Below, one piece after another: positions 21,509 through 43,125 of a stretch of DNA of 64,000 nucleotides (its first letter is position 1; each line of letters starts with the position of its first letter). The DNA comes from an uncultured Candidatus Saccharibacteria bacterium (GTDB lineage Bacteria; Patescibacteriota; WWE3; UBA101185; UBA10185): positions 337,492-401,491 of the forward strand of contig CAZXUJ010000001.1 in NCBI GenBank assembly GCA_964643995.1. The letters are read 5' to 3'. The translations under genes and the position numbers were made by a program. The notes beneath the pieces were generated by a model. The model had not been told where the DNA came from. It searched no databases and saw only the letters and a list, made by a program, of their open reading frames with translations.

Positions 21509-21796
21509 GTGCCCGCTAGAATGTATATGGAAAGTAAAATTATAACCTTTGACCCTGAACTTAAGCATCGTATATTAAAAGCCTTGGGGAAAACTGTAGA
21601 CTCTGAGGGCTTCATTGTGCAAGCGTCAGATGAAACCAACAGGGTATTAGACATATATGGAGAAGAAGTAAAGGTCGCTGAATTTGGTGGATACAAAGAG
21701 GGTTCCGAGCTGTTTGTGAAATCAGACATAAGTGCCCTAATTAAGTTCTATGAGGGGCATTTAAGAGGTCCAAATGTCTCTGGCAGACTTTCTTAA
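21509..21796 (+). CDS. Hypothetical protein
   Basis: 95-aa ORF with no motif recognised. Confidence 0.3.
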   Translation: MPARMYMESKIITFDPELKHRILKALGKTVDSEGFIVQASDETNRVLDIYGEEVKVAEFGGYKEGSELFVKSDISALIKFYEGHLRGPNVSGRLS

Positions 21797-22574
21797 ATCG
21801 TTTGAAGCAATCATTAAGTTTGATAACAGCAACGCACGAAATTTCCGGGATATAAAGTTTTTTAATTTCACCAAAAACGAAACAAACATCACAAATAATG
21901 TCCTGAATTTTAATCCAAAGGATATGTCTGATCAGGAACTAAGTCAGTTCTTGTTGAAAGCCAAAGAGAATGGTTTTACAATAGCCCCTGCAGATACAAA
22001 GTTGTTAAGTCTATCTGAGACATATGAAAGCGATTCTTTTAAAGAAGACGTTTTATGGTTTCAGGGAAAAATACCACAAGCAGATTTAGAGACTCTTAAA
22101 TCAGCCTTTTTTCTAAAGCAAAAACTCGTAAATGATGAGCCCACTGCGGAAATGAAGGAAGGTATTAGAAATAGATTTGGGGCAAGAGGCTCAACAATTT
22201 GCAACCTTTTTAGTGCCCAGTACTTCAAGGAGCTTATCAAACCCTTGTACGAGGCATGTGAAATAGATACAACTTTGGGTAGAAAAACGTTTGATTTGTA
22301 CTACGAGACATTAATAGAGGATTTCCCTGAGGCATTATTCATTTCTACATGGGAGCCCGAAGGAGCTGTGAAGGGTAAGGTTCTTTCCAAAATGGCGTAT
22401 AACAAAAACTATGGAATCTATAAGTTACATCTTCACACAGTAGGTAAAACTAATATTAAGAAAGTACTTTCGGTCGCAAAGTCAATCTGTGAAGAAACTC
22501 CTGAGTTTGAATTTAAAATTACGGATGATAAAGGCCACTACATTAGGCTTACGATGTTTTATAAGCAGAGTTAA
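21774..22574 (+). CDS. Hypothetical protein
   Basis: 266-aa ORF at the left edge of the accessory island; no family recognised. Confidence 0.4.
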   Translation: MSLADFLKSFEAIIKFDNSNARNFRDIKFFNFTKNETNITNNVLNFNPKDMSDQELSQFLLKAKENGFTIAPADTKLLSLSETYESDSFKEDVLWFQGKIPQADLETLKSAFFLKQKLVNDEPTAEMKEGIRNRFGARGSTICNLFSAQYFKELIKPLYEACEIDTTLGRKTFDLYYETLIEDFPEALFISTWEPEGAVKGKVLSKMAYNKNYGIYKLHLHTVGKTNIKKVLSVAKSICEETPEFEFKITDDKGHYIRLTMFYKQS

Positions 22575-22895
22575 CTTACTCTTAGCAGACCCACCTACTT
22601 GGCGTGTAAAATCCAATAATGGTTATACAAGACAAAAAACCCGAAAGGTAATAAACCTACGCCAAAAAGCAAAAGCAGGTAGGGCAGTAGTGAAAGACAC
22701 AATTTGCAGATATATATTCTTGAACATAAAACTCGGAGTTGATGAAGTGCTGTCGTACCAGTTAAAAGAGCCATTTGATACATTACTGAAAAGTAAAGAT
22801 ATACATTCTGGTCGAGCAGTACGGTCATGGAATTTTATATTCTCTAGGCTAGAAATGAGACAAAGGAGACAGTATAAAAAAGGGAGTGTTTTTTT

Positions 22896-23480
22896 TTATC
22901 TTGTAGCATTATTGTGCTCCTGTATTACTTCAAGGAATTTTGTTCCCTCTATTATTAGTACGTTTTTAAAGTTTCCTTCTAGCTTTCCGACCTGCTTAAG
23001 ATAATTAAAGTACCTCTTTAACCTATAGAATAGTTGGTATTTGTCCCCTCCGATTGGTAGCACTATTCCTATCTTTCCCATTACAGATGCATTTAATATA
23101 TCGCCAAAAGCACGTTTTGAATCTTTAGTGTTTTCTATTTCTATTGCAATAAAACACCTCGGATTTTTATTTAGGACACTCATAAAATCTTGAAAGCTCA
23201 TGTACTCATGTCCCTCAGCAACATGCGAAACACTATATAATTTTTCTAACAGATCTTTATGAATTTCGACCATTCTCTCAAATTTGTTGTTATTTACTGC
23301 AAGATTTTTGTCTATATTGAAAGGACCTAATGCAATATCCACCCTTGGTGCATAATAATCCCTACTATTAAAGTCATCTAAGCTGTTTTTTGCAGCATTC
23401 CATTCTTTCACAACACTATCCGGTGCATGTATTTTTTTGAGCTCTCCAAGTATTTTATCTGTGTATTCCTTTGTTTTCAT
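22896..23480 (-). CDS. Hypothetical protein with PD-(D/E)xK-like motif, last gene of the defence operon
   Basis: Start is 7 nt downstream of the helicase stop and in the same orientation. RVDIALGPF ... CFIAIEIENTK resembles the D...ExK nuclease core; this is an inference. Confidence 0.45.
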   Translation of the reverse strand: MKTKEYTDKILGELKKIHAPDSVVKEWNAAKNSLDDFNSRDYYAPRVDIALGPFNIDKNLAVNNNKFERMVEIHKDLLEKLYSVSHVAEGHEYMSFQDFMSVLNKNPRCFIAIEIENTKDSKRAFGDILNASVMGKIGIVLPIGGDKYQLFYRLKRYFNYLKQVGKLEGNFKNVLIIEGTKFLEVIQEHNNATR

Positions 23481-23487
23481 AAAACGT

Positions 23488-26034
23488 TTATCTTATTAGA
23501 AGCTTCGAAATTTCCATATATGCAATACTGTCTGGATCGATACTTTCTACTATAGATTTTATATTGATACTTATCTGTTGGTTTTCATCTAAGGATATTA
23601 GGTCGAAAAAATTTTTAAAAATATATTGCGCAGTATATCTAGATAATCCTAAATCCTGCAAAGCAATAATAAACATATTTGTGGTTCCATACTCTATATA
23701 TTTTGCCCAATTAGGACCTGCTTTGTCTTCACCAACAATGTAAGACAATGTTTGATGATAATGGTTGAAGTATTTTTCTAGCGTAAATCTAAGAATGTCT
23801 TCTATGTCGTTAAGAACACCAATTATTATACTGTTTATGTGTTGTTCGTTATTTTTGTCGAATACCCCTACTGGTTGGCCATATTCGTACATGGTTTTTT
23901 CGTTTTCAGAATACCATTTTATTGTGTTTAGAATAATTCTGTTTATGTTTGCTCCTCCTATCCATTGGTTCATTAGTGCCCCGTAGTAGGTTAATTTGTT
24001 ACTATTATCAAAGTTTTTTTCGATATGTTCCAATTGGTATAAGTCATTAAGGTACTTAAGTACATTCATACAAATTGGGTAGTTGATACTTGTTTCTGGA
24101 AGCGTTACAGGGTTACTCTTTATTGTAGTATAAACTTTGTTTTGTATATCAACATCTATCCACTCGTTTGCGCCCAAAATAGTGTATGGTACAACAATAT
24201 CTTTAACCTTTTCTTCTGCGATAGTCAGTATTTTAGATGAGTTATATGTTTTGATTTTATTGAGGGTGTAACTACTTGTTTCTCTCTTAGTTCCTATGGT
24301 GTCTACGCATATTATGTTGCTTATATACTTAATCTGTTCTTTTTCAGATTGCGTGCCGGATATTGGATTACCCTCAAGAACTTTAGTTAGCTTTATTCTA
24401 TTCCTTTCGAGTTTATCAGTTATAGTAGGTTCAACGTTTATATCTTTGGAGGGTGGTTTTTCTAATGATGTATCTTTTTCATTTTGTATGTAGAAAACAT
24501 TACCAATTAATTCTATATTGGTTCTACCAGCTCTTCCAGACAGATTCCAGAAATCTAGTTCATCCAGTTTAGCCAGGCCTTTTTTATTAGATAGAATGAA
24601 AAGATTAGTTGTTGGCAAATTTATACCTTCAAGTAATGTTGACGTAGTGAACATGTACCTAATTTCATTTTGTTTGTATAAATCTTCTATTATTAATCTA
24701 ATCTCTTGAGGTAGTTTTCCATAATGGAAGGCTATACCTAAAGACAAGAATTTTGCTAAGTAATAATCTTTATGAATATATCCTTTTATCTTATCTATTG
24801 CAGATTTTAGTTTTGGACTTGGTTCTACTTTTTCTACACGGCTAACGTACTCCGCCAGTTTCTTTGCATTTTCAACAACAGAGGCTACGGAATGACAGTA
24901 AACTAAACTATTTGAATATTGTCCTATTTTATGTACTAGTTCAATATAGTTGGTTGCAAAGTCATTCAGATTGTCACTAATGCACCTAAACTCCCCCTGC
25001 ATATTTTGATATATTATGTTTTCTTTGAAGTTGATTTTAAAGACATACTGCGAAACCGTGTTTTCATCAATACTAAAAGACTTGCCTTTGTTTTTTGAAA
25101 ATAATTCTAAATAGACATCTGGGTTTTTTACAAAAGGTGATGCAAAGTATAGATTTATTGCTGGAAATCTGTTTATAGCTTTTTCAATTGCTCTAAATGT
25201 AACTATACTCCGCACATCGTTCTTTGTTGTGATCTTATGTGCTTCGTCAACAAAAAGAAAACCCAATGGGGGGTTATTTTCTTTGTTAGCTAAATACCTA
25301 ATTAATCTCTCAGGAGTTAGTACGAGTAACAGATTTGAGTCTTCCTGAGTATTTATGATGGAACTTACACTTACCTTATAATTGAAGCGTTTTAATTCTT
25401 CTCCTAGTGAGGCATTTATATCTTCAACGTACTGATTTATTAGAGCTTTTGTAGGTACCAATGCCACTATGTTTTCTTTAGGTGCATTATGTAACACATG
25501 CCGTATAAAGTTCTTGATTAAAAAAGATTTACCAATTGATGTTGGACCAGAAAAACTAAACATCTTATTGGTAGTTAGCATGTTGTAAATTTTTAACTGA
25601 GTATCTGTAAAATATAAAGATTCTGTGTTAGGTACTGTATTACGAAGTTTCTTATAAGTTTCGTAAATCTCTCTTTCAAGTGGTACTTTTGTGTAATTAT
25701 CTTTTTCTCTTCCTAGTACATTTTTTGCAGGGAAGTTACCTAAGTTCGTAAATGTATTATATATACTTGTATTATGAAATGGATCATTTGAGAGCCTATT
25801 AACAGTAGCGACAATATTTAGCGCAATGTTCCTAAATTGGGATTCTTGAGTTAGAGATAATATATAGGCGCATCTCAACAGAAAGTCAAAATCTAGTTCC
25901 AAGTCACTCACTGATAGTTTTTCCAACTCAAACAGCTTCGAACTATATAGTAATTGCATTTGTTCATAGGCGTTTGTAAATTGCTCACTATTAACAAGCT
26001 CATTGGCCAATTTTTCTGCAACAGTCTTACTCAT
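23488..26034 (-). CDS. SF2 DEAH-box helicase, HamB-like (Hachiman helicase component)
   Basis: Motif I FSGPTSIGKS, motif II LGFLFVDEAHKI, motif VI NLSGRAGRTN, and a C-terminal extension of about 330 aa. Start codon overlaps the stop of the upstream 306-aa gene. Confidence 0.65.
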   Translation of the reverse strand: MSKTVAEKLANELVNSEQFTNAYEQMQLLYSSKLFELEKLSVSDLELDFDFLLRCAYILSLTQESQFRNIALNIVATVNRLSNDPFHNTSIYNTFTNLGNFPAKNVLGREKDNYTKVPLEREIYETYKKLRNTVPNTESLYFTDTQLKIYNMLTTNKMFSFSGPTSIGKSFLIKNFIRHVLHNAPKENIVALVPTKALINQYVEDINASLGEELKRFNYKVSVSSIINTQEDSNLLLVLTPERLIRYLANKENNPPLGFLFVDEAHKITTKNDVRSIVTFRAIEKAINRFPAINLYFASPFVKNPDVYLELFSKNKGKSFSIDENTVSQYVFKINFKENIIYQNMQGEFRCISDNLNDFATNYIELVHKIGQYSNSLVYCHSVASVVENAKKLAEYVSRVEKVEPSPKLKSAIDKIKGYIHKDYYLAKFLSLGIAFHYGKLPQEIRLIIEDLYKQNEIRYMFTTSTLLEGINLPTTNLFILSNKKGLAKLDELDFWNLSGRAGRTNIELIGNVFYIQNEKDTSLEKPPSKDINVEPTITDKLERNRIKLTKVLEGNPISGTQSEKEQIKYISNIICVDTIGTKRETSSYTLNKIKTYNSSKILTIAEEKVKDIVVPYTILGANEWIDVDIQNKVYTTIKSNPVTLPETSINYPICMNVLKYLNDLYQLEHIEKNFDNSNKLTYYGALMNQWIGGANINRIILNTIKWYSENEKTMYEYGQPVGVFDKNNEQHINSIIIGVLNDIEDILRFTLEKYFNHYHQTLSYIVGEDKAGPNWAKYIEYGTTNMFIIALQDLGLSRYTAQYIFKNFFDLISLDENQQISINIKSIVESIDPDSIAYMEISKLLIR

Positions 26035-26954
26035 TACTTAATTTTCCTTATTAATTCTTTTCTTGTATTAGAAATATCCGATAAAGGAATTATGTACAAA
26101 TAAACATTATGAAAGTTTAGCTCTTTATCCTCTAATGCCTTTGCTATAGTTTCTTTTTTTGACAATACTTCATTTTTAATCTGTTCTCTAAGTGCTACAG
26201 TAAATTCCATAGTTCCTTTGGCTTGCATCTCCTCGTCAAAATCTACATTAAACCCTAGTAAAATGCCGAATGCATCATCTGTTGGTATGTTATCTTTTGA
26301 TAATGCGGGAAAGAGTATTCGTTTAACTATTTTGTATTCATTTTCGCTAAGGCACTCTTTTATAAGGTTGGCATTTATTAGCCCTCGTTCATATGAAATT
26401 TTTCCCTCGGACTTTAACAGTTTTATAGACTTTACAGCCTCACTAATTCCACTTACTAGAGACTTGTGCACTTTTGATTCTCCGTAGATAAGCTGGTATT
26501 CCTCCTCCGATATTTTTAATAGATGAATACCATCAGAGCCTTTTACATAATCATTACCGGCTGTTTTTAATTCTAATTTAGAGATAATTTTAGGCGCCTC
26601 TAAATGACTTTCTAAAAAGCAATATAGGAGTAATTCTCCTAGTTCCCCATCATTAGATGCAGCTTTTCGCAGCTTTTCCTTTGCTCTATCATTTAGTTCC
26701 CCAAACCTTCCCTCTTTTACAAAGTTTTCAATTTCTTTTCTAGAAAGTGCATAATTGATCAGATTATTTGATAGCTCTGGTATCAAGGTGTCGTAGTCGA
26801 ATCTACTATTTCTTGTTTTCAAGATAAATAGGTCCAGTTTCTTATTGTCAGTAAGTTGGATCCCTTGTAATTCATGATAAAACAAGTTTAAGAACTCTTT
26901 ACTTGACCGGATCGACTTATTTATAGGATTTGTACCCATAGTTGCATTATACAT
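26034..26954 (-). CDS. HamA-like protein (putative DUF1837-type effector with D...ExK motif)
   Basis: 306 aa, immediately upstream of and translationally coupled to the helicase, in the classic Hachiman two-gene architecture. GSDGIHLL ... IYGESKVHK gives a D141 / E159-x-K161 PD-(D/E)xK-like arrangement. The domain call is an inference. Confidence 0.45.
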   Translation of the reverse strand: MYNATMGTNPINKSIRSSKEFLNLFYHELQGIQLTDNKKLDLFILKTRNSRFDYDTLIPELSNNLINYALSRKEIENFVKEGRFGELNDRAKEKLRKAASNDGELGELLLYCFLESHLEAPKIISKLELKTAGNDYVKGSDGIHLLKISEEEYQLIYGESKVHKSLVSGISEAVKSIKLLKSEGKISYERGLINANLIKECLSENEYKIVKRILFPALSKDNIPTDDAFGILLGFNVDFDEEMQAKGTMEFTVALREQIKNEVLSKKETIAKALEDKELNFHNVYLYIIPLSDISNTRKELIRKIK

Positions 26955-26988
26955 CCAATTAGTGGCTGTATTGAGGTATATTTTAGTG

Positions 26989-28107
26989 CTACTGTGCTTT
27001 TATAAGCATAGTTAGTTTCTCTTCTGTTTCATAACATCTTAATCTGCCACTCAAATATCCAACCCTATAACTAATACCATCGCTCATTAATCTCCAATTT
27101 GTATCCTCAAGGGTTTTGTTCAGAAGTTTTTTAAGCTGTTGTTTGCTGTCATATTCTTCTCTGTCTGATTTTTCATCTTGGGTAATAAAAGGTACAACAG
27201 CGTATTTACCTAATTCTGGCTTCTCAAATTGAAGTTCAATATAGCCTTCTTTTTCCAATGCCTCTTTAACAAGCTTGTTAAGCTCCACGACTTTTAGTTT
27301 TTTAAGGCTCATGGCTTTTTTATAAGCTGGATCTTCCTTCTTTTCTTTGTCTTTTTTTATATCGCTCATAAGATTAGAGAGATTTTCTGACCATAGTACA
27401 GCTTCATTACCTTCCTTTTCATTAAAACAAAATTCTTTTCTAAACTTTTTAAGTAATTCTTTATCTTTTGCTTCCTCTTTTTCCCGTTCTTCTCTCCATT
27501 TTTTATGATCATCAACTTTAACCTCTTTGTAATCGCAACCTGTGCATTTATGTGTCCAAGTAGTTTTATCTTTGTTATCGTCAATCTTTATTGAAACATC
27601 TATCTCAGAGCCACATTTTTCACATAATGTTGGGTTGCTTTCCCAAACTTCTCCATCATCATAATAGGCTTCTCTTTTGTGACATCTTGGGCATTCATAC
27701 ATAAACAAGACTCTAAAATTACTATCTAAACCTCTTTCCCAAGAGTCTTTGCTTATAACATCAAGCAAAACGTCACAGTCTTTGCAGTAGTATTCTCCTG
27801 AATCTGCATTATCATAAGTTTCTTGTTTTGTTCTATCTTTCTCCATCCATTCATTTATTGTTTTTTTCTTGCTTTTAAATCTTGTAACTTTAATTGAATA
27901 CAAGGTCATGTTTATTAAGCGTAACCAGTCATTTTTACGTTTTTCTTCAGAAATATTTTCTTTGTTTGGTAATTTCATTGCTTCGGGTAGCTTTTTGTAA
28001 AGGGCTTGGTAGTAGTCGAGGCATTCTTTGATTGTTACAAGGTCATGGAGATCGATATAGTATTGTTCTGGTTTGATAAATGTTTCAGATTCTAGTTTTT
28101 TTGCCAT
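26989..28107 (-). CDS. Double zinc-ribbon (4x CxxC) protein with Lys/Glu-rich coiled coil, unknown function
   Basis: CKDC, CPRC, CEKCG and CTGC pairs at residues about 108-190 form two C4 ribbons, followed by a KE-rich helix and a C-terminal domain. Start lies 2 nt after the hsdR stop. Confidence 0.5.
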   Translation of the reverse strand: MAKKLESETFIKPEQYYIDLHDLVTIKECLDYYQALYKKLPEAMKLPNKENISEEKRKNDWLRLINMTLYSIKVTRFKSKKKTINEWMEKDRTKQETYDNADSGEYYCKDCDVLLDVISKDSWERGLDSNFRVLFMYECPRCHKREAYYDDGEVWESNPTLCEKCGSEIDVSIKIDDNKDKTTWTHKCTGCDYKEVKVDDHKKWREEREKEEAKDKELLKKFRKEFCFNEKEGNEAVLWSENLSNLMSDIKKDKEKKEDPAYKKAMSLKKLKVVELNKLVKEALEKEGYIELQFEKPELGKYAVVPFITQDEKSDREEYDSKQQLKKLLNKTLEDTNWRLMSDGISYRVGYLSGRLRCYETEEKLTMLIKAQ

Positions 28108-28109
28108 AC

Positions 28110-31100
28110 TTAAGCATTTGCAAAACTAAATTGTGCATTTGCTCTAATCCCTGAAAGTACCCCAAAGATTAAATCTCTTTCTGCGGGCCCAAATACTCCG
28201 TCTATTCCTCGGTCGTCAATAAAGGTGAATGGCTGATCGTATAGGTCACCTGGCTTAACAATTCCAGTAGCAACGATATGATCTATGACTTTATCTAAAA
28301 ACTGCATTTGAGCCGCATTTAGATTATGTTTTTGCATAAACTCACTAAAGGCTGCTTTTGCTATGTCTCTATCCAGTCCAACAAGACTTCGTATAAATTC
28401 TCCAACTGTTTGTCCTTTGAGTGCATTCTCGAACTCAGTTTTATCGATATCATAGTTACTGCTGATTAATAGTGCTTCAATTTCCTGTATATCCATCTGA
28501 TCTAGTTTTTCATTATTCTTAATTTTCTGTATTGCAGATACAAACTCATTTTCTCTAATGATGGATTGCACCCTTTTCAAATAGTTGTCCCTGTTAGGTG
28601 CGTCTTTAACTACCCCACTTGAAGTGACGGTTGAACCATAAATAGTATCCGTAAAGTTTGTGTAGACTGCCTTTCTGTCTGGTGGATCAAGAAGTTTGAT
28701 TAAATCTCGTAAATCCCTACGTATCTCTTCTAGATCTTCGGTAGTTGGATTAGACCAAAAAGCCTCTTCTTTGATTTTGTTTATAGTAGCAATCTTTTCA
28801 GCAACTGCAGGAATATTGGCTTTCTCAAATAGTAGATCTGCTAATGTCATTACTCTTTTCTTGCTATTAGTAAGATTCTTAGATTCTTTAAGTGATTCAA
28901 CTTGCAGATTTAACATGAGGGAATCAAATCTTCTAGCAAATTCATCGTCATCTACGACAAGATTTGAAAATGGAGCAATGTGTTCATTAACATCCAACAC
29001 ATCTTGTTTACTTAGATTTTCCCAACGATCACGACTACTAAATTCATCAATATATCGTTTGTGTTTGCGTAGACTAAAACTCATCGGAGCCATCTGAGTT
29101 ACATCTTCATGTAGGATATTTAACAAGCTAAGTCTAAAGTCTTGCAAAGGTTGATTTTCGCTATACTTTCCTCCTTGTAGTTCATGCGCCAACTCAACTC
29201 GTCTTTCAAAAATCAATTGTGACAGTGGTTTCTGAGTTGAGCCTTTAATCCCCTCAGGATTGACTTTAAAGAATTCAAAATTTCCACAGAAATCAAAAAT
29301 CAAAAATTCTTTCTTATCGCCTTCTGGGCTATCCGGGCCAAACAGTTTTGGACATAAGCGAGTACCACGTCCTATCATTTGCCAGAATTTTGCTTTGGAA
29401 CGAGTAATTTTGAAAAAGACCAAGTTAACAATTTCAGGAATATCTATACCGGTATCAAGCATGTCTACCGAAACAGCAATAAAAGGGCTATCTGGTTTAT
29501 TTTGCTTAAATTCGTCAATTAAGGTATGAGAATAGTCGGCATAGTTATCGATCACTCTTAGTGCTCTGCCACTATAATGTGGGTAATTTTTGTTAAATCT
29601 CTCCTGAATAAACATGGCATGTTCGTGTCTTTTTGCAAAGATGATGGTTTTACCCAACCTATCACCACCTTCAACTTTTATTCCATTTTCCATTAAGTGC
29701 GCTAAAACCTGATCAACAGTATTTGTGTTGAATACCCAATCATTAAATTGAGATGGCGCAATCATCAATGGTAGTTGTCCGTCATCATCCTCAAAGGTCA
29801 TTTCATACATTTCTTTCTCTTCCTCGCTCAATTCGTCATATGTTAGACCTTCTGTTAAAAATTTGAGGGGTACATCAATCTGTTTTGGAGGTACTAAAAA
29901 CTTATCTTCAACTGCCTGATCTAGTTCATATGAATAAGTTGGGTTGTGGTCTTCTAGTCCAAATAATTCATAAGTGTTGTGATCAACCTCAGCTTTTGGA
30001 GTAGCAGTCAAGCCAATAAGTAGTGAATCAAAGTAATCAAAGATAGCACCATATTTCTGATATACACTCCTGTGTGCCTCATCAATGATAATCAAGTCAA
30101 ATCTACCAATACCAAATCTCTTTACTCCATCCTTCTTTGATTCATCAATCATATTCATCATAGTCGGATATGTGGAGAAAACGATGCGAGAAGTTGTATC
30201 TTCCTTTTCTTTGGTGATATCGATTGTAGTGGCTTCAGGATACAAATCATTAAAAGCCTCCTTAGCTTGAGTTAATAGAGCGTTTCTGTCTGCTAAGAAT
30301 AATACGTTTTTAATCCAGCCTTGCTTCATCAGTAACTCCACTAGAGCAATTGAAACTCTAGTTTTACCCGTTCCCGTTGCCATGACTATCAATGATCTTC
30401 TTTCTTTATGTTCTAGTTGTTCCAATACACTTTGGATTGCTAGTTTTTGGTAATACCTTCCAGCAACTTCATCATTGACCTGTGCTTCCAACAAACTCTT
30501 GCGAGTTTTGCGACGATTGATCATTGTTTGAAGCTGATCCTTAGTGTAAAAACCTTGAATAGGTCGCGGCGGATACATATCATCTTCCCAAATCCAATGA
30601 TCATATCCATTGGTATAGAAGATTACTGGCCTTTGCCCGTGTTTCTTTTCCAAGGCGTTTGCATACAGTTCTGCTTGCCTTTGTCCTTTTTGAGCATCAT
30701 GAGTTGTCCGTTTAGCTTCTACCAAACCTACTGGTAAACCATCATCTCCCCATAAAACATAGTCTACGTACCCAATACCTTTGTTGTTGGGCATACCCTC
30801 CACTTCGTATTCAGCTACATTTTCACCTTGTGGATCCCAGCCAGCCTCTTTTAGTAACAAGTCTATAAATAATTCTCTAGTTTCAGCCTCAGAATAGTCT
30901 TTTTGACTAACTTGTTTCTTATTCTTTTCCTTAGTGACTTGTATTTGTGTACGAAGTTCTTTAAGTTCCTCTTCATATTCAACTAACAGTAACTTCTGTT
31001 GTTCAAATTCTTTACCTTGTGAATCGAGCTTATCTTGCAATTGTTGTAGTTCTTCAGCATTTTTATCAGCCTCTCCTTCACGAGGAATAAAGGATTCTGA

Positions 31101-31502
31101 ATATTGCGGCAATTCTGGTTGCTCTTCACTGTATTGCATAGCCATCCATTCGCAGAAGTTGTAGAGATTTCTCAGAGAAGCTAGCGATTCTTTTTCACTA
31201 ATTGGTTTTCGGCTATGAACAGCTTGATTGCCAATTTTGCGGATGTAGTTGATCAAGTGAAAAAGGTTATATGGCAATAATCTTTTGAAACTTGGTTCAT
31301 GCATTAGGGCAGCCAAGTGTGTTTCGTAAGGTTGCTGCAAATCAGAGTCGTGTAAATACAACCAGTTGATGATCAGCTCTACAGTGCGTCGCGCGTAAAA
31401 CACCGAAGTGCGTGGTGCAGTAAACGTATGCTGTTCTGTTTGTAAAGCCTCTTCATAAATCTGCGGCCAGTTATTTTCTAAAAATGTAAAGTTTGATTTC
31501 AT
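28110..31502 (-). CDS. hsdR: Type I restriction enzyme R subunit
   Basis: N-terminal FLENNWPQIYEEALQTE-type domain, PD-(D/E)xK nuclease motif GYVDYVLWGDDGLPVGLVEAKRT, helicase motif I MATGTGKT, DEAH box IIIDEAHRS, and HsdR C-terminal domain; 1130 aa. Confidence 0.85.
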   Translation of the reverse strand: MKSNFTFLENNWPQIYEEALQTEQHTFTAPRTSVFYARRTVELIINWLYLHDSDLQQPYETHLAALMHEPSFKRLLPYNLFHLINYIRKIGNQAVHSRKPISEKESLASLRNLYNFCEWMAMQYSEEQPELPQYSESFIPREGEADKNAEELQQLQDKLDSQGKEFEQQKLLLVEYEEELKELRTQIQVTKEKNKKQVSQKDYSEAETRELFIDLLLKEAGWDPQGENVAEYEVEGMPNNKGIGYVDYVLWGDDGLPVGLVEAKRTTHDAQKGQRQAELYANALEKKHGQRPVIFYTNGYDHWIWEDDMYPPRPIQGFYTKDQLQTMINRRKTRKSLLEAQVNDEVAGRYYQKLAIQSVLEQLEHKERRSLIVMATGTGKTRVSIALVELLMKQGWIKNVLFLADRNALLTQAKEAFNDLYPEATTIDITKEKEDTTSRIVFSTYPTMMNMIDESKKDGVKRFGIGRFDLIIIDEAHRSVYQKYGAIFDYFDSLLIGLTATPKAEVDHNTYELFGLEDHNPTYSYELDQAVEDKFLVPPKQIDVPLKFLTEGLTYDELSEEEKEMYEMTFEDDDGQLPLMIAPSQFNDWVFNTNTVDQVLAHLMENGIKVEGGDRLGKTIIFAKRHEHAMFIQERFNKNYPHYSGRALRVIDNYADYSHTLIDEFKQNKPDSPFIAVSVDMLDTGIDIPEIVNLVFFKITRSKAKFWQMIGRGTRLCPKLFGPDSPEGDKKEFLIFDFCGNFEFFKVNPEGIKGSTQKPLSQLIFERRVELAHELQGGKYSENQPLQDFRLSLLNILHEDVTQMAPMSFSLRKHKRYIDEFSSRDRWENLSKQDVLDVNEHIAPFSNLVVDDDEFARRFDSLMLNLQVESLKESKNLTNSKKRVMTLADLLFEKANIPAVAEKIATINKIKEEAFWSNPTTEDLEEIRRDLRDLIKLLDPPDRKAVYTNFTDTIYGSTVTSSGVVKDAPNRDNYLKRVQSIIRENEFVSAIQKIKNNEKLDQMDIQEIEALLISSNYDIDKTEFENALKGQTVGEFIRSLVGLDRDIAKAAFSEFMQKHNLNAAQMQFLDKVIDHIVATGIVKPGDLYDQPFTFIDDRGIDGVFGPAERDLIFGVLSGIRANAQFSFANA

Positions 31503-32152
31503 AAACTAAATGATTCCACTAATGCAAATAAATTTTTAATAGCAGGATTTTCCGAAAAATAAAAACGATTATCCTCAAGATTCTTTCTGAGAAAGAATTG
31601 ATAATCTACCTCATTCTCTGTAGATATTGTCATCACAAAATCTAGATAGGGATATTTTAACTTAATTTCTTCATCAATCTCATAAGAATCAAGATTTTCA
31701 TCATATCGAAAACCAAATCTTTCTAATAAATTATTCCTATCAACATCTAAGTGATAGGCAAATACTCCAAATAACGGGATATTATCTTTATCCAAGTTTT
31801 TGATAATTTCAGCATCTTCATTTGCCTTTTTAAGATGTTGATTGGTAAGCCTACTTTTTATTTCCAACACTAGTTTGCAATAACGCACATGCATAACAAC
31901 ATTTCTGCTATTCGGTGGATCCAAGGGAGCACTAATTGAACAAAAAATGCTGTCGCATTGGGGACTGTGGGAGTCGTTGTCATTAAATAGTTCACCACTC
32001 TTAACAACTATATTTTTGTGTCGATTTAAAATTAAATCTTTCAAAAAGTCTTCCCTAACTGTTCCTAGGGTTGGTTTATGGATAAACTCACTAGAAACTT
32101 CATATTGAGCTAGAAGAAGTTTTTGATAATACTCAAAAACTGCATTAGACAT
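31499..32152 (-). CDS. Hypothetical protein inserted between hsdS and hsdR (possible D...ExK nuclease-like)
   Basis: 217-aa ORF overlapping hsdS by 8 nt at its start and overlapping hsdR's start (ATGA). QCDSIF ... CKLVLEIKSR gives a D...ExK-like pattern; this is an inference. Confidence 0.45.
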   Translation of the reverse strand: MSNAVFEYYQKLLLAQYEVSSEFIHKPTLGTVREDFLKDLILNRHKNIVVKSGELFNDNDSHSPQCDSIFCSISAPLDPPNSRNVVMHVRYCKLVLEIKSRLTNQHLKKANEDAEIIKNLDKDNIPLFGVFAYHLDVDRNNLLERFGFRYDENLDSYEIDEEIKLKYPYLDFVMTISTENEVDYQFFLRKNLEDNRFYFSENPAIKNLFALVESFSL

Positions 32153-33323
32153 TTAGACCTCCTATAAATGCTTTTTGCAGTAGAGATCTAAATAATATAT
32201 TGGTTACCTCTTTCGAGTTAATCATTGATTTTTTATTATCATCAATTGATTCAATTAACAACCTATACCTAGTCTGTAACTCAATAGGTGGTGTCAATAC
32301 GCTTATTTTTAATAAATTAGTTTGATTAATACCAGAGATTGTTGACTGAGTAATGTAGGGCTTAACATATTTATTTTTTGACCTTGTGTTGTTAAAAAAC
32401 TGCAGTAAATATTCACTATCAATTTTTGTTTGATTGGGTCTCACTCTAATTAGTGAGGATTCAAACACTAAATCATTGTTATCAATATTCCTAACAATGC
32501 TAGCCTTTGCTGCACCTTCAAGAACCAAAGATCTTCGTGCTATTAACAAATCATTATTATTTAATTGGTATTTTTCCAAATCATCCTTTGTTAACTCAAC
32601 AGACTGTTCAACCTCAGGTGTTACAACATCAGAAAATGCATCTGACATATGCACCATGGGAGTTCCCTCAACATTGTATTTTTCTTTTGGTAGGTATAAG
32701 CCATTTTTTGTATCTTCGACCAATTTATCCAAGGTAATCTCATCCCAGTTTTTAGGATTAGAGGCGGGATCTCCAAAAATTTCATAAAAAATAGCCTCTT
32801 TTAGTTCAGCCAATTTTTCAATTGTTTTTTCTCTTTTCTTTTGCATAGCATCGGCCTCGTCCAAAATCTCCACAATTTGCTGTTGTACTTTAAGTTGAGG
32901 AAGGGGGACTTTAATTTTTTTTAAGTATTTAAAATGACGGCTATACCCGTCATTAGGAAGATTTAATGTATGAAAAAAATAGTAGGCATACTTTGGCTCA
33001 ATCTTTTTATTGCAAGAAATAATTTTGGTACCATCTGCCCCAGCCGCAAAATCAAAATCGATATATTTAAACTTTCTAGTGTGATCCCCAAAAATAATTA
33101 GAGGTTGTGATGCTTCAATAATACCAATATTATTGTTCGTATAACCACCTATAAGCTCATCTCCCTGATCAACGATTGGATAAACCCCCTCATCTATATA
33201 AGATGATTTCTTGAACTTTTTTGGAGGTGTGATGGTATCAAACAAGGCATCAAAGGTAGCAATATCCCAAGTATTTGGCAGACTAGAAAATAATGCTGGA
33301 TTTTGAATTACACTATTTATCAT
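32145..33323 (-). CDS. hsdS: Type I restriction-modification specificity subunit
   Basis: Two target-recognition domains separated by the conserved central helix (LPLPQLKVQQQIVEILDEADAMQKKRE), with a conserved C-terminal repeat (LLQKAFIGGL). Confidence 0.8.
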   Translation of the reverse strand: MINSVIQNPALFSSLPNTWDIATFDALFDTITPPKKFKKSSYIDEGVYPIVDQGDELIGGYTNNNIGIIEASQPLIIFGDHTRKFKYIDFDFAAGADGTKIISCNKKIEPKYAYYFFHTLNLPNDGYSRHFKYLKKIKVPLPQLKVQQQIVEILDEADAMQKKREKTIEKLAELKEAIFYEIFGDPASNPKNWDEITLDKLVEDTKNGLYLPKEKYNVEGTPMVHMSDAFSDVVTPEVEQSVELTKDDLEKYQLNNNDLLIARRSLVLEGAAKASIVRNIDNNDLVFESSLIRVRPNQTKIDSEYLLQFFNNTRSKNKYVKPYITQSTISGINQTNLLKISVLTPPIELQTRYRLLIESIDDNKKSMINSKEVTNILFRSLLQKAFIGGLNV

Positions 33324-34840
33324 AGGTTAGTTTTTAATCTCTTTAGACTTTCCTGAATTTCATATTCAATTTTTTCTAAATCCTCAATAATCCTCTTTGG
33401 TTCTTCATATTCCACGTCTTCATACTCAATCTCTTTATACCGATTTATTGAGAGGTCATAGTCATTTTCGCGGATTTCTTTGACTGGCACTACGAAAGAT
33501 TGATCGGTTCTTACCCTGGCTTCTTCATCTTTAAGATTATGATAGCGTTTGATGATATCGGGAGTGTTATTTTCCTCATGTTTTTCAAGATCAAGCTCTT
33601 GGCGTTTATCATCAAGCGAATACCCATCAGCCTTCATGTCATAAAACCAAACGTTATCAGTACCGCCTGAGTTGGTCTTTGTAAACAGAAGCACTGCAGT
33701 AGAAACACCCGCGTAAGGTTTGAATACACCAGATGGCATGGATATTACTCCTTGAAGCTGATGATCATCTATAAGAAGTTTTCTAATTGCCTTATGCGCA
33801 TTGGAGCTACCAAACAACACACCATCGGGAACAATTACTGCGGCACGGCCACCAGTTCTAAGTTGTTGGATAAATAATGCAATAAACAACAACTCAGTTT
33901 TCTTAGTTCGGACAATCTGCAATAAATCATTTGCTACCACTTCATAATCCAACGATCCTTTAAATGGAGGATTGGCTAGAATCACATCATATTTGTTTCT
34001 TGTTTCTGCTTGGCTTTGAGATAGTGCATCCTTGTCAGTCACGTTGGGGTTTTCGATACCGTGAAGCACTAAGTTCATCACAGCAATACGGATCATAGTA
34101 CGATCAAAGTCGTTGCCATAAAACATAGTGTTGTTGAAATGATCTCGCAATTTATCATCAGTAAATATTTCGGGATAGGTATCACGGACATATTCACTAG
34201 CTGCTACTAAAAATCCTCCAGTTCCACAAGCAGGATCCGCAATCTTGTCAGTTCGCTTTGGTTCCACCAACTCAACCATCATTTTAATAATGTGTCGTGG
34301 AGTTCTAAATTGACCGTTTCTACCTGCCGTCGCTATTTTTGAAAGTAAGTATTCGTACACATCTCCCTTGGTATCTCTGTCATGCATCTTGATTTCATTG
34401 AGCATGTTGACGACCTTGTCCAACAGGTTTGGGGTAGGAATCATGAAGGTTGCATCTTTCATGTATTGGGTATAGGTGTCCTCTGTTTTGCCATTTAGGT
34501 TTTTTATAAAGGGAAAAACATCCTCAGAAACAATCTCATACATCTTTTTGGGCTCAAGATCTTTAAACCTAGACCAACGCAGTTGTTGTTGATTATCAGA
34601 AAAGATTGGCTTAGTTATTTCAGTTTTTTGTGCGTTAGCCTTATTTTCACGCAGTGTGTGGATTTCATCTAAACGTTTAATAAAAAGGAGATATGTGATT
34701 TGTTCTATGACTGTTAGTGGATTAGAAATACCACCTGTCCAAAAAGCATCCCATACTCTGTCAATTTCTGTTTTTAATTTTCCTGTTAACATAAGGACAT
34801 TATAACTCGTGATTTTGTTGTAGTCCTGCAATTTATACAA
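33320..34840 (-). CDS. hsdM: Type I restriction-modification DNA methyltransferase subunit (N6-adenine)
   Basis: HsdM N-terminal domain, motif I DPACGTGGFL, motif IV ILANPPFKGS. The stop overlaps the hsdS start. Confidence 0.85.
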   Translation of the reverse strand: MYKLQDYNKITSYNVLMLTGKLKTEIDRVWDAFWTGGISNPLTVIEQITYLLFIKRLDEIHTLRENKANAQKTEITKPIFSDNQQQLRWSRFKDLEPKKMYEIVSEDVFPFIKNLNGKTEDTYTQYMKDATFMIPTPNLLDKVVNMLNEIKMHDRDTKGDVYEYLLSKIATAGRNGQFRTPRHIIKMMVELVEPKRTDKIADPACGTGGFLVAASEYVRDTYPEIFTDDKLRDHFNNTMFYGNDFDRTMIRIAVMNLVLHGIENPNVTDKDALSQSQAETRNKYDVILANPPFKGSLDYEVVANDLLQIVRTKKTELLFIALFIQQLRTGGRAAVIVPDGVLFGSSNAHKAIRKLLIDDHQLQGVISMPSGVFKPYAGVSTAVLLFTKTNSGGTDNVWFYDMKADGYSLDDKRQELDLEKHEENNTPDIIKRYHNLKDEEARVRTDQSFVVPVKEIRENDYDLSINRYKEIEYEDVEYEEPKRIIEDLEKIEYEIQESLKRLKTNL

Positions 34841-35054
34841 TATTAGTTAGCGGTTGCACCCCCTCTTGTCAAGTAGGGGTTGGTTTGACAACTAAAAACA
34901 AGTGTTGTACTTTATAATTATTGAGAGTTGAATAGTAAAAAAATACCTACCTCTTACTTCATAGTAAGCAGGTTATGCTCGATATGTATGGGGCCGAGCG
35001 TTAGGAAGTAATCACTTCGATTATTTTCTGGCGTTCGGCCCTTTTTTTGTTTGT

Positions 35055-36374
35055 ATGAAAGAAGAATTAAAAATAATAAAAGTTAATATTAAGGACTTAA
35101 AAGTTGCAGATTATAACCCTCGAAAGTGGGATAAAACAAAAACTCAAAATTTAAAAGAAAGTATTGGAAAATTTGGGCTAGTTGATCCCTTGATTGTTAA
35201 TTCTGCACCAAGTAGAAATAATGTTGTAATTGGTGGCCATTTTCGCTTACAAGTTGTCAAAGAACTTGGCTATGCAGATGTACCAATTGTCTATTTAAAT
35301 ATTCCAGATATTGAAAAAGAAAAGGAATTGAATGTAAGGCTTAATAAGAATACAGGTGATTGGGATTACAAGTTGTTAGCCGAGTTTGACTCCTCCTTAC
35401 TAGATATTGTTGGTTTTAACAGTGAGGAGCTAGACGATATCTTTGGTTTAGACGAAACCCCAGAAGAGTTTAATCTGCAAAAAGAGTTAGAAAAATTAAA
35501 CATTCAAGAAATTTCTACAGTAGATGGTGATATCTATCAATTGGGTGAACATCGCCTAATGTGTGGTAATTCAACAATAGAAGATGATGTCCTAAAACTC
35601 ATGGACGGCGAAAAAGCGGATATGTGTTTTACAGACCCTCCATATATTCTCGACTATTTGAAAGGTAAAAAGAAAAGCGATAAGGGTTTTGGACTAAAGA
35701 AAAATAGAAGGTATTTAGGTACAGATTCATTGCCTGATGATTTCACTGAATTATGGATGTCAAACATCTCAAAAGTACAAAAGGATGACTTCTCAATCAT
35801 TGTTTTTGAGAATTGGAAAAACATAAGAACTATCTGGGATGCAATGGAAGATTACTGGAAAGTTAAAAACATGATTGTTTGGCATGTTCCAAATAGGACA
35901 CAGGGGTTTTCTGGAAAATACAGATTTTTCTCAAAGCATGATATTGCAATGGTTGGTGCGTCTCCAAATTCTGATATTCCTTTTAATCTAGAAGAAGAAA
36001 TTGAGGGTCTACAAAATGAGTATGAAACGGCACTATATGCAATTTCTGGTAAACCTCATTGGGAAAGTTATAAAAAGGGTAAAAAATACCAACCAACAGA
36101 TTATATTGATCATCCTGTAGATGATGCCAAACATTCAGGACAAGGTATCGTATTTGGTACGAAACCAATAGAAATATTAATTCCCTATATAAAAGTTTTA
36201 ACTAAAAGAAATGATTTAATAATTGAGCCTTTTGGTGGTAGTGGCTCTACTCTTATTGCCTCTACAAAGATGAAAAGAAGATGCTATGTGATGGAAAAAT
36301 CCCCCGTTTATGTAGAAATAATAAAACATAGATGGGAAAAATTGACTGGGCAGAAAGGGGTAAAAATACAATGA
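35055..36374 (+). CDS. ParB-like nuclease domain fused to DNA methyltransferase (phage-type orphan N6A/N4C MTase)
   Basis: N-terminal ParB/Srx fold (KVADYNPRKW..., GGHFRLQVVKELG). C-terminal MTase motifs DPPY (MCFTDPPY) and FGGSGST (IIEPFGGSGSTLIAS). Confidence 0.8.
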   Translation: MKEELKIIKVNIKDLKVADYNPRKWDKTKTQNLKESIGKFGLVDPLIVNSAPSRNNVVIGGHFRLQVVKELGYADVPIVYLNIPDIEKEKELNVRLNKNTGDWDYKLLAEFDSSLLDIVGFNSEELDDIFGLDETPEEFNLQKELEKLNIQEISTVDGDIYQLGEHRLMCGNSTIEDDVLKLMDGEKADMCFTDPPYILDYLKGKKKSDKGFGLKKNRRYLGTDSLPDDFTELWMSNISKVQKDDFSIIVFENWKNIRTIWDAMEDYWKVKNMIVWHVPNRTQGFSGKYRFFSKHDIAMVGASPNSDIPFNLEEEIEGLQNEYETALYAISGKPHWESYKKGKKYQPTDYIDHPVDDAKHSGQGIVFGTKPIEILIPYIKVLTKRNDLIIEPFGGSGSTLIASTKMKRRCYVMEKSPVYVEIIKHRWEKLTGQKGVKIQ

Positions 36375-36778
36375 GCAAATTAATTCAAAAAAGGCAAAAG
36401 CAAGAAAAAGAAGCATTAATAGAACAATTGAAGAAAACCCCAATAATACAAATGGCGTGCAAAAATGCAGGTGTTGGGAGAGCAACATACTATCGCTGGA
36501 GAAACCAAGATTACAAATTCGCACAAAAAGCAGATGAAGCATTAGAAATGAGTGTAAGTCTTATGAATGATTTAGCTGAGTCCCAGCTTATATCAGCAAT
36601 TAGAGACAAAAACATGACTGCAATAATCTTTTGGTTAAAACATAGGCATCAAGGTTATTCCACAAAAGTACTACTTTCTGGCTCCCTTGAGACCTCTATA
36701 AAGCTTTCTCCTGAACAACAGAAAGTATTTAAAAAAGCCGTACATTTAGTTTTTGGTGAGAATTCAGATGTCGAATAA
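36371..36778 (+). CDS. terS: Phage terminase small subunit (HTH-containing)
   Basis: HTH GVGRATYYRWRN and the IIFWLKHRH motif typical of small terminases. ATGA overlap with the upstream MTase; followed directly by terL. Confidence 0.6.
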   Translation: MSKLIQKRQKQEKEALIEQLKKTPIIQMACKNAGVGRATYYRWRNQDYKFAQKADEALEMSVSLMNDLAESQLISAIRDKNMTAIIFWLKHRHQGYSTKVLLSGSLETSIKLSPEQQKVFKKAVHLVFGENSDVE

Positions 36779-38324: not shown

Positions 38325-38446
38325 CCTTTTGAGGTATAATTGCCTTAGAAAATTAAACAGCCGCGAAGAAAATCCACTATTTTGTGGTGCATGAAACCTT
38401 AAAAGGGGCTACTCTTCAGGGTTTCATGCTTCGCGGCTGTTACTAC

Positions 38447-38464
38447 AAGGGTAGTCCCTTTTTT
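38447..38464 (+). terminator. Intrinsic terminator downstream of terL and of a large hairpin
   Basis: AAGGG-tagt-CCCTT stem-loop followed by TTTTTT. Confidence 0.45.
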
Positions 38465-38555
38465 ATGTACAGTTGCAAAAATAACTACAATTTAAAAACT
38501 TGCCTATATTTAAGTGGTCTGTCATCAATCATCTTGAAAAATAAATTTATATTGT

Positions 38556-39302
38556 ATGGAGGTGATTAATACGGAAAATAATGAAAACAAACCAAAAAAG
38601 AAAAGTAAGTTAACAATGTTGGGTTATATAATCGGTGGATTATTCATATTTGGAGGTGTCAGTTTCATCTTTTCAAAAGAGACTGGACCGCTGGTTGGTT
38701 TAGGGTACTTAGCTTCGGGTTTAGTTGTATTTCCTCCGTTTTGGGAGTTTATGAAAAAGAAATACGATTTTGTATTATCTAGACCACTAAAAATTATGGC
38801 ATTTTTAGTTCTTATGGGAATTACAGGAGGTTTACTGGTGCAGAGAGCTGATAAATATCAAGAACCTAAACCTACTGTAGAAAAGATTACCAACGTTACG
38901 TCGCCTACAGTAAAAAAGGAAGTTAAAACTACGCCCAAAATTGTTGAAGAAAAACCCAAAGTAGAGCCTTTGGATATAGCTATTACAAGCCAGATCGTTA
39001 AAAAAGTAGATGGAAAATGCAGATACTTTTTTGATGTAAGGAACACTGATGTAAATGAATTTGAAGGTTCTGTAGAAATTGCACTTATGAACTCATCCGG
39101 AAGTACTTTAGGCAGAGAAACTTTCAACACCAATAAACCTATCCAACCATCTTTAGGTTCAACTGTTTATTTTGATATAAACACTTGTCCAGGGGGAGAA
39201 TTAGGAATATCAGATTATTCATACAAGGTTATGGTTGGGAAAGATATAGTAGCTGAGGGTAAGAAAAGTATTACTTCTAAGTATGAGAACTTGAGTTATT
39301 GA
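38556..39302 (+). CDS. Hypothetical membrane-anchored protein
   Basis: Two N-terminal hydrophobic helices, then a Lys/Pro/Val-rich linker (KKEVKTTPKIVEEKPKVEP) and a beta-rich C-terminal domain. Confidence 0.4.
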   Translation: MEVINTENNENKPKKKSKLTMLGYIIGGLFIFGGVSFIFSKETGPLVGLGYLASGLVVFPPFWEFMKKKYDFVLSRPLKIMAFLVLMGITGGLLVQRADKYQEPKPTVEKITNVTSPTVKKEVKTTPKIVEEKPKVEPLDIAITSQIVKKVDGKCRYFFDVRNTDVNEFEGSVEIALMNSSGSTLGRETFNTNKPIQPSLGSTVYFDINTCPGGELGISDYSYKVMVGKDIVAEGKKSITSKYENLSY

Positions 39303-40114: not shown

Positions 40115-40196
40115 AGTGCAATTATACTTGGGAAAAGGAAATGCAGGTGAAGTTGTTTTTTCTCAAGAGTTCGTATTTCCAATAGACATTTAGTTT

Positions 40197-40703: not shown

Positions 40704-40710
40704 TGTGTAG

Positions 40711-43004: not shown

Positions 43005-43125
43005 ATGTTGTTGTAAACTAAACCAAATCAAGCAAAACAGCGGTTCGTGAGTTAAAAAATCAATAGGGGTTTTATCAAACCATTAACGGGTAATTTAAGC
43101 ATCATGGTCACAATGATGCCCATTC

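Follow-up and report, generated by a model that had tools for sequence, protein, structure and literature searches.

The window analyzed here is a stretch of 64,000 nucleotides (nt) of contig CAZXUJ010000001.1, from an uncultured Candidatus Saccharibacteria bacterium. On its minus strand, at positions 22896-34840, lie eight co-directional open reading frames (ORFs) that encode a type I restriction-modification (R-M) system, a Hachiman pair (hamA and hamB), and the products of three further genes, orf217, orf372, and orf194. A preliminary description of this DNA proposed that R-M and Hachiman form one cooperating array, with the three further genes as accessory or sensor components. We conclude that the array is probably a set of separate, swappable defense modules on a mobile-element backbone and not one fused immune machine. 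By the same reading, the array would be the cargo region of a phage-related integrative element of ~20 kb (window positions ~22.8 to 42-43 kb), which the preliminary description had missed.

The ORF list gave the eight genes exactly the coordinates reported before, and reading the junctions from the sequence bore out their tight packing on the minus strand, with neighboring genes overlapping by 1-8 nt or separated by 2-34 nt. The genes, from hsdM to orf194, are as follows.

33320-34840, minus strand: hsdM, type I R-M methyltransferase (MTase), ORF of 506 amino acids (aa); overlaps hsdS by 4 nt (ATGA)
32145-33323, minus strand: hsdS, specificity subunit with two target-recognition domains, 392 aa; overlaps orf217 by 8 nt
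31499-32152, minus strand: orf217, DUF6602 PD-(D/E)xK nuclease between hsdS and hsdR, 217 aa; overlaps hsdR by 4 nt (ATGA)
28110-31502, minus strand: hsdR, type I restriction subunit, 1130 aa; 2-nt gap to orf372
26989-28107, minus strand: orf372, putative backbone (anchor) gene of the element family, 372 aa; 34-nt gap to hamA
26034-26954, minus strand: hamA, Hachiman nuclease effector (DUF1837), 306 aa; overlaps hamB by 1 nt (TAATG)
23488-26034, minus strand: hamB, Hachiman superfamily 2 (SF2) helicase, 848 aa; 7-nt gap to orf194
22896-23480, minus strand: orf194, small stand-alone protein with a restriction-endonuclease-like PD-(D/E)xK fold, 194 aa

Neighborhoods of orf372 and the element backbone

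We screened the neighborhoods of orf372 in 80 loci from species-representative genomes, searching 10-kb flanks by tblastn with the window proteins. HamA, HamB, orf194, and orf217 were each found in 0 of the 80 loci. A ParB-like protein fused to a DNA methyltransferase (ParB-MTase) was present in 28, a small terminase (TerS) in 24, a large terminase (TerL) in 19, and a serine recombinase in 10 to 12; HsdM was present in 13. The layout in orf372 loci was constant: the genes for serine recombinase, TerL, TerS, and ParB-MTase on the minus strand, a gap of 0.26-8.7 kb, and then orf372 on the plus strand. In four loci, the gap between the ParB-MTase gene and orf372 was shorter than 500 bp. The window has the same layout, with the four-gene R-M unit occupying that gap. 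These data suggest that orf372 is a backbone gene of an element family and not an accessory of Hachiman or R-M.

In total, 467 homologs of orf372 were detectable, and the species-representative genome collection held 308 loci. Their records were overwhelmingly labeled as Patescibacteria lineages; some carried the labels of other taxa, which are unconfirmed. The gene upstream of orf372 was co-directional, with a gap of at most 30 nt, in 52 of 77 loci. Since this tight packing occurs regardless of the neighbor, it is a property of the platform and gives no sign of a specific partnership. Cultured phages yielded no tblastn match to orf372, and IMG/VR held only six contigs with the gene, all with island-type context and none a full phage.

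In the orf372 protein, two zinc ribbons and a coiled coil lie between a helical N-domain and a C-terminal alpha/beta domain. The double zinc ribbon noted in the preliminary description fits the four invariant CxxC pairs that we found. Pfam, PADLOC, NCBIfam, and PHROGs gave nothing usable for this protein, and it has no nuclease or nucleoside triphosphatase (NTPase) motif. The zinc ribbons suggest nucleic acid binding, and orf372 would act on behalf of the element and of no particular defense system; through the zinc ribbons, it might take part in maintenance, regulation, or packaging specificity. A long form of ~540-560 aa accounted for 28 of 78 homologs (e.g., in loci L058, L028, L042, L043, and L070); its ~190-aa extra C-terminal region contains a further CxxC...CxxC pair and has no sequence relative in the Protein Data Bank (PDB).

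The remainder of the backbone lies to the right of the array, where the following features were identified.

34841-35054: control region from which the cargo operon and the parB-MT operon diverge
34993-35039, plus strand: terminator-like hairpin (stem, ≥20 bp) and T-run, CCCTTTTTTTG, 15 nt upstream of the parB-MT start (35055)
35055-36374, plus strand: ParB-MTase, a ParB-like nuclease domain fused to an N4/N6 DNA methyltransferase
36332-36778, plus strand: TerS, a small terminase-like helix-turn-helix (HTH) protein
36753-38324, plus strand: TerL, large terminase
38556-40703: three backbone ORFs without a recognized family, orf248 (plus strand), orf272 (minus strand), and orf168 (minus strand)
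40711-42006, plus strand: large serine recombinase, the element integrase
43126-43202, minus strand: tRNA-Pro(GGG), a possible right-hand island landmark 1.1 kb past the recombinase

ParB-MTase matched phrog_498 (1.4e-85) as well as NCBIfam ParB and MTase models, and is 63-71% identical in many orf372 loci. TerS matched Pfam HTH_Tnp_1_2 (4.1e-8) and PHROG small-terminase families (3.9e-8). TerL matched phrog_38 (3.1e-58) and the NCBIfam T7-type TerL (1.6e-12), and is 22-27% identical to phage TerLs. The serine recombinase carries a YARKS17 motif and matched Pfam Resolvase, Recombinase, and Zn_ribbon_recom and the phrog_95 integrase family (1.9e-57). There was no Pfam or PHROG match for orf248, orf272, or orf168, the last two of which are conserved in locus L168 (63% and 85% identity, respectively). 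Between 21.4 and 43.1 kb, Pfam and PHROG searches detected no capsid, portal, tail, or lysis family, and five island ORFs had no family at all. The window yielded no match to a replication or repressor family, and only relatives carried genes of the S24/LexA-like and Cro-type HTH kinds.

The control region is conserved with locus L167 from 34865 onward. The 87-nt leader before parB-MT has a folding energy of ~-42 kcal/mol and is nearly identical in L167. A hairpin and T-run of unrelated sequence occupies the same spot upstream of ParB-MTase in L032, L169, L175, L172, L055, and L078. This leader hairpin may be a terminator or attenuator that controls the packaging operon.

Locus L167, the closest relative, carries orf372 at 81% identity to the window, the recombinase at 87%, orf248 at 76%, TerL at 72%, TerS at 70%, and ParB-MTase at 90%. 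Nucleotide homology between the window and L167 is confined to positions 27029-28070, 34865-39298, and 40732-41996. We placed the limits of the first of two putative exchangeable cargo slots, which flank orf372, where this homology breaks.

28108-34864: slot A, from the control region to orf372; here hsdM, hsdS, orf217, and the DUF4145-type hsdR
downstream of orf372: slot B; here hamA and hamB, then orf194

In L167, the gene order is ParB-MTase, then HamA-HamB-orf372, then two convergent genes, one of them for a C5 methyltransferase (type II-like R-M). HamA and HamB of L167 are only 41% and 34% identical to those of the window, compared with 70-90% for the backbone. Given this low identity, and the position of Hachiman on the opposite side of orf372, the two Hachiman pairs were acquired independently, in different slots.

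Other relatives carried still other cargo. L168 (orf372 identity, 72%) has a type ISP R-M system, an RNase H-like protein, a PDDEXK protein, and a large helicase, and lacks TerL. L169 (63%) has methyltransferases, unknown genes, and a radical SAM protein; L001 (59%) has a different type I R-M system and Shedu; and L002 (44%) has Shedu. The recombinase of L001 is 97% identical to that of the window at the protein level and 86% at the nucleotide level (window positions 40695-42005), and nucleotide homology ends at the recombinase stop codon, 42005. An identity of 97% for the recombinase, with 59% for orf372 and other cargo, indicates mosaic recombination between elements.

Pfam matches among 71 slot A proteins from 24 loci included MmeI/Eco57I R-M enzymes, C5 and N6 methyltransferases, Shedu, helicases, and a KAP NTPase, along with SMODS, SAVED, and HORMA domains (parts of CBASS) and S24/LexA-like repressors. 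Among 117 proteins downstream of orf372, Pfam identified Shedu, DUF5677, DUF4917, DUF2779, PLD nucleases, and restriction enzymes, and PADLOC identified Shedu, PDC-S39, PDC-S21, PbeA, PDC-S11, PDC-S37, and type I and type III R-M. Housekeeping genes lie beyond the slot B cargo, at the island ends. Cro-type HTH proteins, DUF2779 nucleases, trypsin-like proteases, and CD-NTases also recurred next to orf372. Thus, as in a defense hotspot, conserved core genes flank unrelated cargo in related elements. New cargo would enter by recombination between the conserved flanks.

One recurrent cassette lies directly 5′ of orf372 in L029, L031, L050, L051, L052, and L063. It consists of a DUF2779/Cas4-like nuclease gene (~501 aa) followed by a gene for a trypsin-like protease (363 aa); in L029, L031, and L052, a gene for a 166- to 170-aa protein follows that of the protease. 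The cassette resembles published nuclease-protease defense pairs, although the nuclease fold differs.

Accessory candidates, R-M, and Hachiman

The three further genes of the array fared differently as candidate accessory components. For orf217, a word-indexed search returned only 3 relatives, so we used an exhaustive search instead, which gave 66 representative clusters at E values of ≤1e-10, all stand-alone proteins of ~220 aa. In all six informative relatives (L171, L178, L179, L181, L182, and the P0174 contig), orf217 directly follows hsdS; two further contigs were too short to judge and were left out. In the first five of these, the orf217 relative is flanked by hsdS and a DUF4145-type hsdR, whose product aligns from residue 1 of the window HsdR. 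The P0174 contig has the order hsdR-hsdM-hsdS-DUF6602. Identity to the window orf217 is 69% in L171, 36% in L178 and L179, 30% in L181 and L182, and 41% in the P0174 contig, and HsdR identity (83, 61, and 31-36%) drops in step with orf217 identity (69, 36, and 30%). In L178 and the P0174 contig, the R-M unit with orf217 is found without Hachiman and without orf372. This co-divergence with the DUF4145-type HsdR, over a broad span of identities, points to a stable R-M subtype of four genes and less to sporadic insertion of orf217. We conclude that, as judged from gene order and sequence divergence, orf217 is a true accessory, a co-evolving fourth gene of this R-M subtype, and the only such gene among the three candidates.

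The orf217 product matched Pfam DUF6602 (3.6e-10), the PADLOC Cas-associated PD_DExK model (1.5e-13), and PADLOC NucC (8.5e-4), and has the motif D67...E97-x-K99. Its similarity to NucC in the PDB (7zgv) is weak (E value, 0.034) and insignificant alone. It matched none of the PADLOC PDC models and had no tblastn match in cultured phages. In this R-M subtype, orf217 would act as a second, associated nuclease.

For orf194, we examined 80 metagenomic loci, of which 34 had enough upstream sequence. HamA was present in 0 of these 34 and a weak HamB-like match in 1, with no recurring partner family. The neighbors instead included ABC/SMC-type ATPases, Eco57I, DUF1016/YhcG, DUF2326, GmrSD, AIPR, Vsr, and BsuBI, and the gene upstream of the orf194 homolog was co-directional in 50 of 57 loci. 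Pfam, PADLOC, NCBIfam, and PHROGs gave nothing usable. The protein does have the fold and motif of a nuclease. Judging by these neighborhoods, orf194 is a promiscuous nuclease that lives in many unrelated defense islands. It may act as a further effector, either as a stand-alone (possibly modification-dependent) nuclease or as a catalytic subunit borrowed by different sensors.

Three other identities were considered for orf194. That it is a third Hachiman gene was rejected on the absence of HamA from all 34 of those loci. A type II endonuclease with a cognate methylase was unsupported, methyltransferases being just occasional neighbors. We also rejected the metallo-beta-lactamase (MBL) or "gated" nuclease of HamMAB-type Hachiman: the fold is different, there is no protease, and the HamA catalytic motif is kept.

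The proposal of three accessory or sensor genes therefore holds for orf217 and fails for orf372 and orf194. For the latter two, we found no conserved association with R-M or Hachiman genes, an outcome that the preliminary description had itself named as contradicting its proposal.

Both known systems in the array proved to be what the preliminary description had called them. The Pfam and PADLOC profiles agree on a type I HsdM, HsdS, and HsdR, and the catalytic motifs are intact. HsdM matched Pfam N6_Mtase (1.2e-73) and HsdM_N (1.4e-20) and PADLOC MTase_I (2.8e-194), with motif I DPACGTGGF at residues 202-210 and NPPF at 290-293. Its true start is most likely Met17 (position 34792) and not the TTG at 34840, because the PADLOC alignment begins at residue 17 and an independent gene call gave 490 aa. 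HsdS matched Pfam Methylase_S in two stretches (7.2e-24) and PADLOC Specificity_I over its full length (9.8e-75). In relatives with 50-83% identity in HsdM and HsdR, HsdS identity is just 26-33%, a divergence that would be expected for variable recognition domains.

HsdR has, in order, an N-terminal DUF4145 domain, a PD-(D/E)xK nuclease, an SF2 motor, and EcoEI_R_C. It matched Pfam ResIII (3.3e-42), EcoEI_R_C (4.2e-20), DUF4145 (1e-7), HSDR_N (2.6e-7), and Helicase_C, and PADLOC REase_I over its full length (6.3e-191). Its motifs are D247...E262-A-K264, a Walker A at 375-381, and DEAH at 474-477. HsdR scored below the NCBIfam equivalog cutoffs (314 versus 729 bits for PRK11448; 273 versus 550 bits for EcoAI) and is therefore a family-level member, not an EcoAI equivalog. 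An HsdM with the expected domains and motifs, a two-domain HsdS, and an HsdR with PD-(D/E)xK and SF2 parts make this an ordinary and apparently functional type I R-M system.

HamA matched Pfam PF08878 (4.3e-56), that is, the DUF1837 similarity on which the preliminary description had staked its Hachiman assignment of the 306-aa protein. It also matched PADLOC HamA1 (5.7e-102) and PDB 9wh1_A (1.1e-13), and its D141...G158-E-S-K161 is the D-GExK motif as defined for HamA (PMC12799240). HamB matched PADLOC HamB1 (9.8e-246) and aligned end to end with PDB 9wh1_B (1.9e-126), with a Walker A GPTSIGKS at residues 163-170 and DEAH at 263-266. Thus, a DUF1837 protein with D-GExK is followed directly, with a 1-nt overlap, by an SF2 helicase, and the pair is an ordinary, apparently functional type I Hachiman. 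Neither orf372 nor orf194 qualifies as a third Hachiman gene, since neither matched any PADLOC model, HamC included.

In the proposed mechanism, the modules would act autonomously, in layers. HsdM2S would methylate self DNA, and HsdR would translocate on and cut unmodified DNA. Hachiman is reported to sense DNA damage or aberrant DNA and then to degrade DNA (PMC12799240); here, HamB would sense aberrant or damaged DNA and then release the HamA nuclease, as described for Escherichia coli Hachiman. The whole array would be co-transcribed from the promoter region divergent from parB-MT. Terminator-like matches were not in excess in the array region (12, versus 8.4 +/- 3.3 in shuffles).

Alternative explanations and comparison with known elements

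Several points weigh against the reading of separate modules on an element backbone, and some of them would favor other explanations. Start/stop coupling suggests co-expression, and regulatory or functional synergy between the modules is possible. Hachiman directly adjoins orf372 in both the window and L167, an adjacency that could reflect a functional affinity missed by the wider sample of more distant relatives. The genes of relatives were called by a crude ORF finder, and tblastn detection of neighbors misses very distant homologs. The sole evidence for the left island end is an 11-nt repeat from a repeat-based att search, and the mobility of the element (excision, packaging, and replication) is putative. 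The same uninterrupted, start/stop-coupled array, the shared Hachiman adjacency, and the genuine tie between orf217 and the R-M unit would all fit a single integrated immune system in which the eight proteins work together and orf217, orf372, and orf194 couple type I restriction to Hachiman as accessory or sensor subunits. We consider such a system very unlikely. HamA and HamB are absent from the 80 orf372 loci, as HamA is from the 34 orf194 loci; L167 has Hachiman on the other side of orf372, at an identity far below that of its backbone; and the R-M unit with orf217 occurs elsewhere without Hachiman or orf372. What stands of the original proposal is the tight co-directional array, the intact R-M and Hachiman systems in it, and the association of orf217 with R-M; the "fusion" is better described as two cargo slots filled around a backbone gene.

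The place of orf372 in the backbone is the next point on which explanations part. Upstream sequence extended for 9 kb or more in 56 orf372 loci, and in 27 of these BLAST detected no backbone gene, so that orf372 is not strictly tied to the backbone and could itself be a mobile or defense-linked gene. It might then be a defense-associated protein (a generic zinc-ribbon DNA sensor, regulator, or self-protection factor for adjacent systems) and not an element-maintenance gene. That role would explain its constant location inside defense operons, and its tight co-directional packing with variable defense genes, its four invariant CxxC pairs, and its confident, novel fold are in keeping with it. 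We nevertheless judge it unlikely. The identity of orf372 follows the backbone, not the cargo; in the four loci with the shortest gaps, orf372 is directly divergent from ParB-MTase with no slot A cargo; and the protein belongs to no family in PADLOC, Pfam, or PHROG, lacks a nuclease or NTPase motif, and has no single recurring partner family. Terminase and ParB-MTase genes without a recognizable capsid, portal, tail, or lysis gene might also mark a decayed prophage remnant, with defense genes brought beside the terminase by accidental deletion, and the lack of TerL in L168 would agree with decay. However, the compact order ParB-MTase, TerS, TerL, zero to three ORFs, and serine recombinase, with a divergent orf372, recurs in dozens of genomes at orf372 identities of 36-44%, which independent decay is not expected to yield, and every backbone ORF in the window is intact. 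A decayed remnant is thus highly improbable, and separate modules on an element backbone remain the reading that we favor.

P2-like prophages and P4-like satellites carry defense hotspots (Rousset et al. 2022, PMC9122126). Like those hotspots, and like the cargo slots of integrative and conjugative elements, pipolins, and integrons, the element described here has variable anti-phage systems at fixed positions between core genes, with unrelated cargo on closely related backbones. It differs in its backbone (ParB-MTase, TerS, TerL, a large serine recombinase, and the novel orf372), in its host range (mostly Patescibacteria metagenome-assembled genomes), and in having two slots around one anchor gene, with the cargo spliced into a single tightly packed operon. 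It also resembles phage-inducible chromosomal islands (PICIs) and other phage satellites, as a small element with an integrase, packaging genes, and defense cargo and no recognizable virion genes. Unlike PICIs, it has both TerS and TerL, its integrase is a large serine recombinase, the window contains no recognized replication module or repressor, and a helper phage is not in evidence.

Genes embedded in type I R-M operons have been described, including TgvAB in Vibrio cholerae VPI-2 (PMC11411939) and others found through "guilt-by-embedding" (Payne et al. 2024, bioRxiv 10.1101/2024.01.29.577857); PrrC and RloC are further examples. In such systems, the extra gene is co-transcribed with its hsd neighbors. 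orf217 is likewise an extra gene among hsd genes, with overlapping stop and start codons. Unlike PrrC, RloC, and TgvAB, the embedded gene here is a single DUF6602 PD-(D/E)xK nuclease that co-diverges with the DUF4145-type HsdR. Damona, a single-gene DUF6602 anti-phage system from a Vibrio cholerae chromosomal integron (bioRxiv 10.1101/2024.07.02.601686), is similar to orf217 in its domain and profile matches, namely DUF6602 and the Cas PD_DExK model. Among CBASS profiles, Damona matches the small-endonuclease model and orf217 the nuclease NucC; and Damona is a stand-alone cassette, reported mainly from integrons and prophages, whereas orf217 is fixed in type I R-M operons.

The Hachiman pair shares with canonical type I HamAB (Tuck et al. 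2024, PMC12278908; PDB 8vxy and 9wh1) a D-GExK HamA, an SF2 HamB, and a hamA that overlaps the hamB immediately downstream. We found no essential difference, and regard the pair as a new, ordinary member in a Patescibacteria-like genome. It lacks the protease or MBL add-on of HamMAB-type Hachiman (PMC12799240).

Little is known of immunity and mobile elements in the phylum Patescibacteria, most members of which are uncultured episymbionts. The literature searched, the coverage of which was incomplete, contained no description of an orf372-marked element family. What is new here is the particular backbone and its anchor protein, their apparent breadth in Patescibacteria, and the stable four-gene R-M unit. 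The juxtaposition of R-M and Hachiman is cargo loading and not a new fused mechanism, and the original claim is marked down to that extent. With 308 loci, orf372 and its backbone offer a practical handle for finding defense systems in Patescibacteria, since the slots hold known systems and many unannotated genes. The DUF6602 nuclease between hsdS and the DUF4145-type hsdR offers an example, open to testing, of a fourth component that co-evolves with a type I R-M system, and orf194 represents a new small nuclease family of defense islands with no fixed partner.

A bolder proposal, which we hold only tentatively and regard as doubtful in its entirety, is that orf372-marked elements are an undescribed, widespread family of phage-derived or satellite-like islands and the main exchangeable defense platform of Patescibacteria; that orf372 is structurally novel and essential to the element life cycle; and that hsdM-hsdS-DUF6602-hsdR(DUF4145) is a distinct four-component subtype whose extra nuclease works with the restriction complex. 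If this were true, the two hotspots of each element could be mined for new anti-phage systems.

Island boundaries, composition, and neighboring genes

An 11-nt direct repeat, CATTCTGGTCG, occurs at 22804-22814, ~80 nt past the orf194 stop codon, and at 43121-43131, across the 3′ end of tRNA-Pro. The repeat could be the core of an island boundary but is too short for significance alone. A second direct repeat of 21 nt (43191-43211 and 43238-43258; 95% identical) places a copy of the tRNA-Pro 5′ end immediately beyond the gene and may be the scar of an earlier integration. An Rfam scan of the window found only three tRNAs.

The preliminary description had called the island more AT-rich than the housekeeping genes beside it. 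This is the case, to a modest extent, for the block of Hachiman, orf372, and orf194 (GC content, 0.324, compared with 0.379 in flanking housekeeping DNA). The difference is uneven across the array: the R-M block has a GC content of 0.361, and hsdR (0.375) and hsdM (0.379) are near the flank value, with hsdS and orf217 much lower. The array itself is thus compositionally mosaic.

To the left of the array, a 171-aa ORF with a GTG start (22489-23004, plus strand) lies antisense to the 3′ end of orf194; its translation is basic and of low complexity, and it is probably no real gene. orf266 (21774-22574) and orf95 (21509-21796) had no homologs in any related locus. A glycosyltransferase cluster is close by on this side. 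Next to the island on the right, an ORF at 43776-44474 on the minus strand matched the NpmA family of 16S rRNA (adenine1408-N1) methyltransferases (PF24675, 7.7e-52), a family linked to aminoglycoside resistance.

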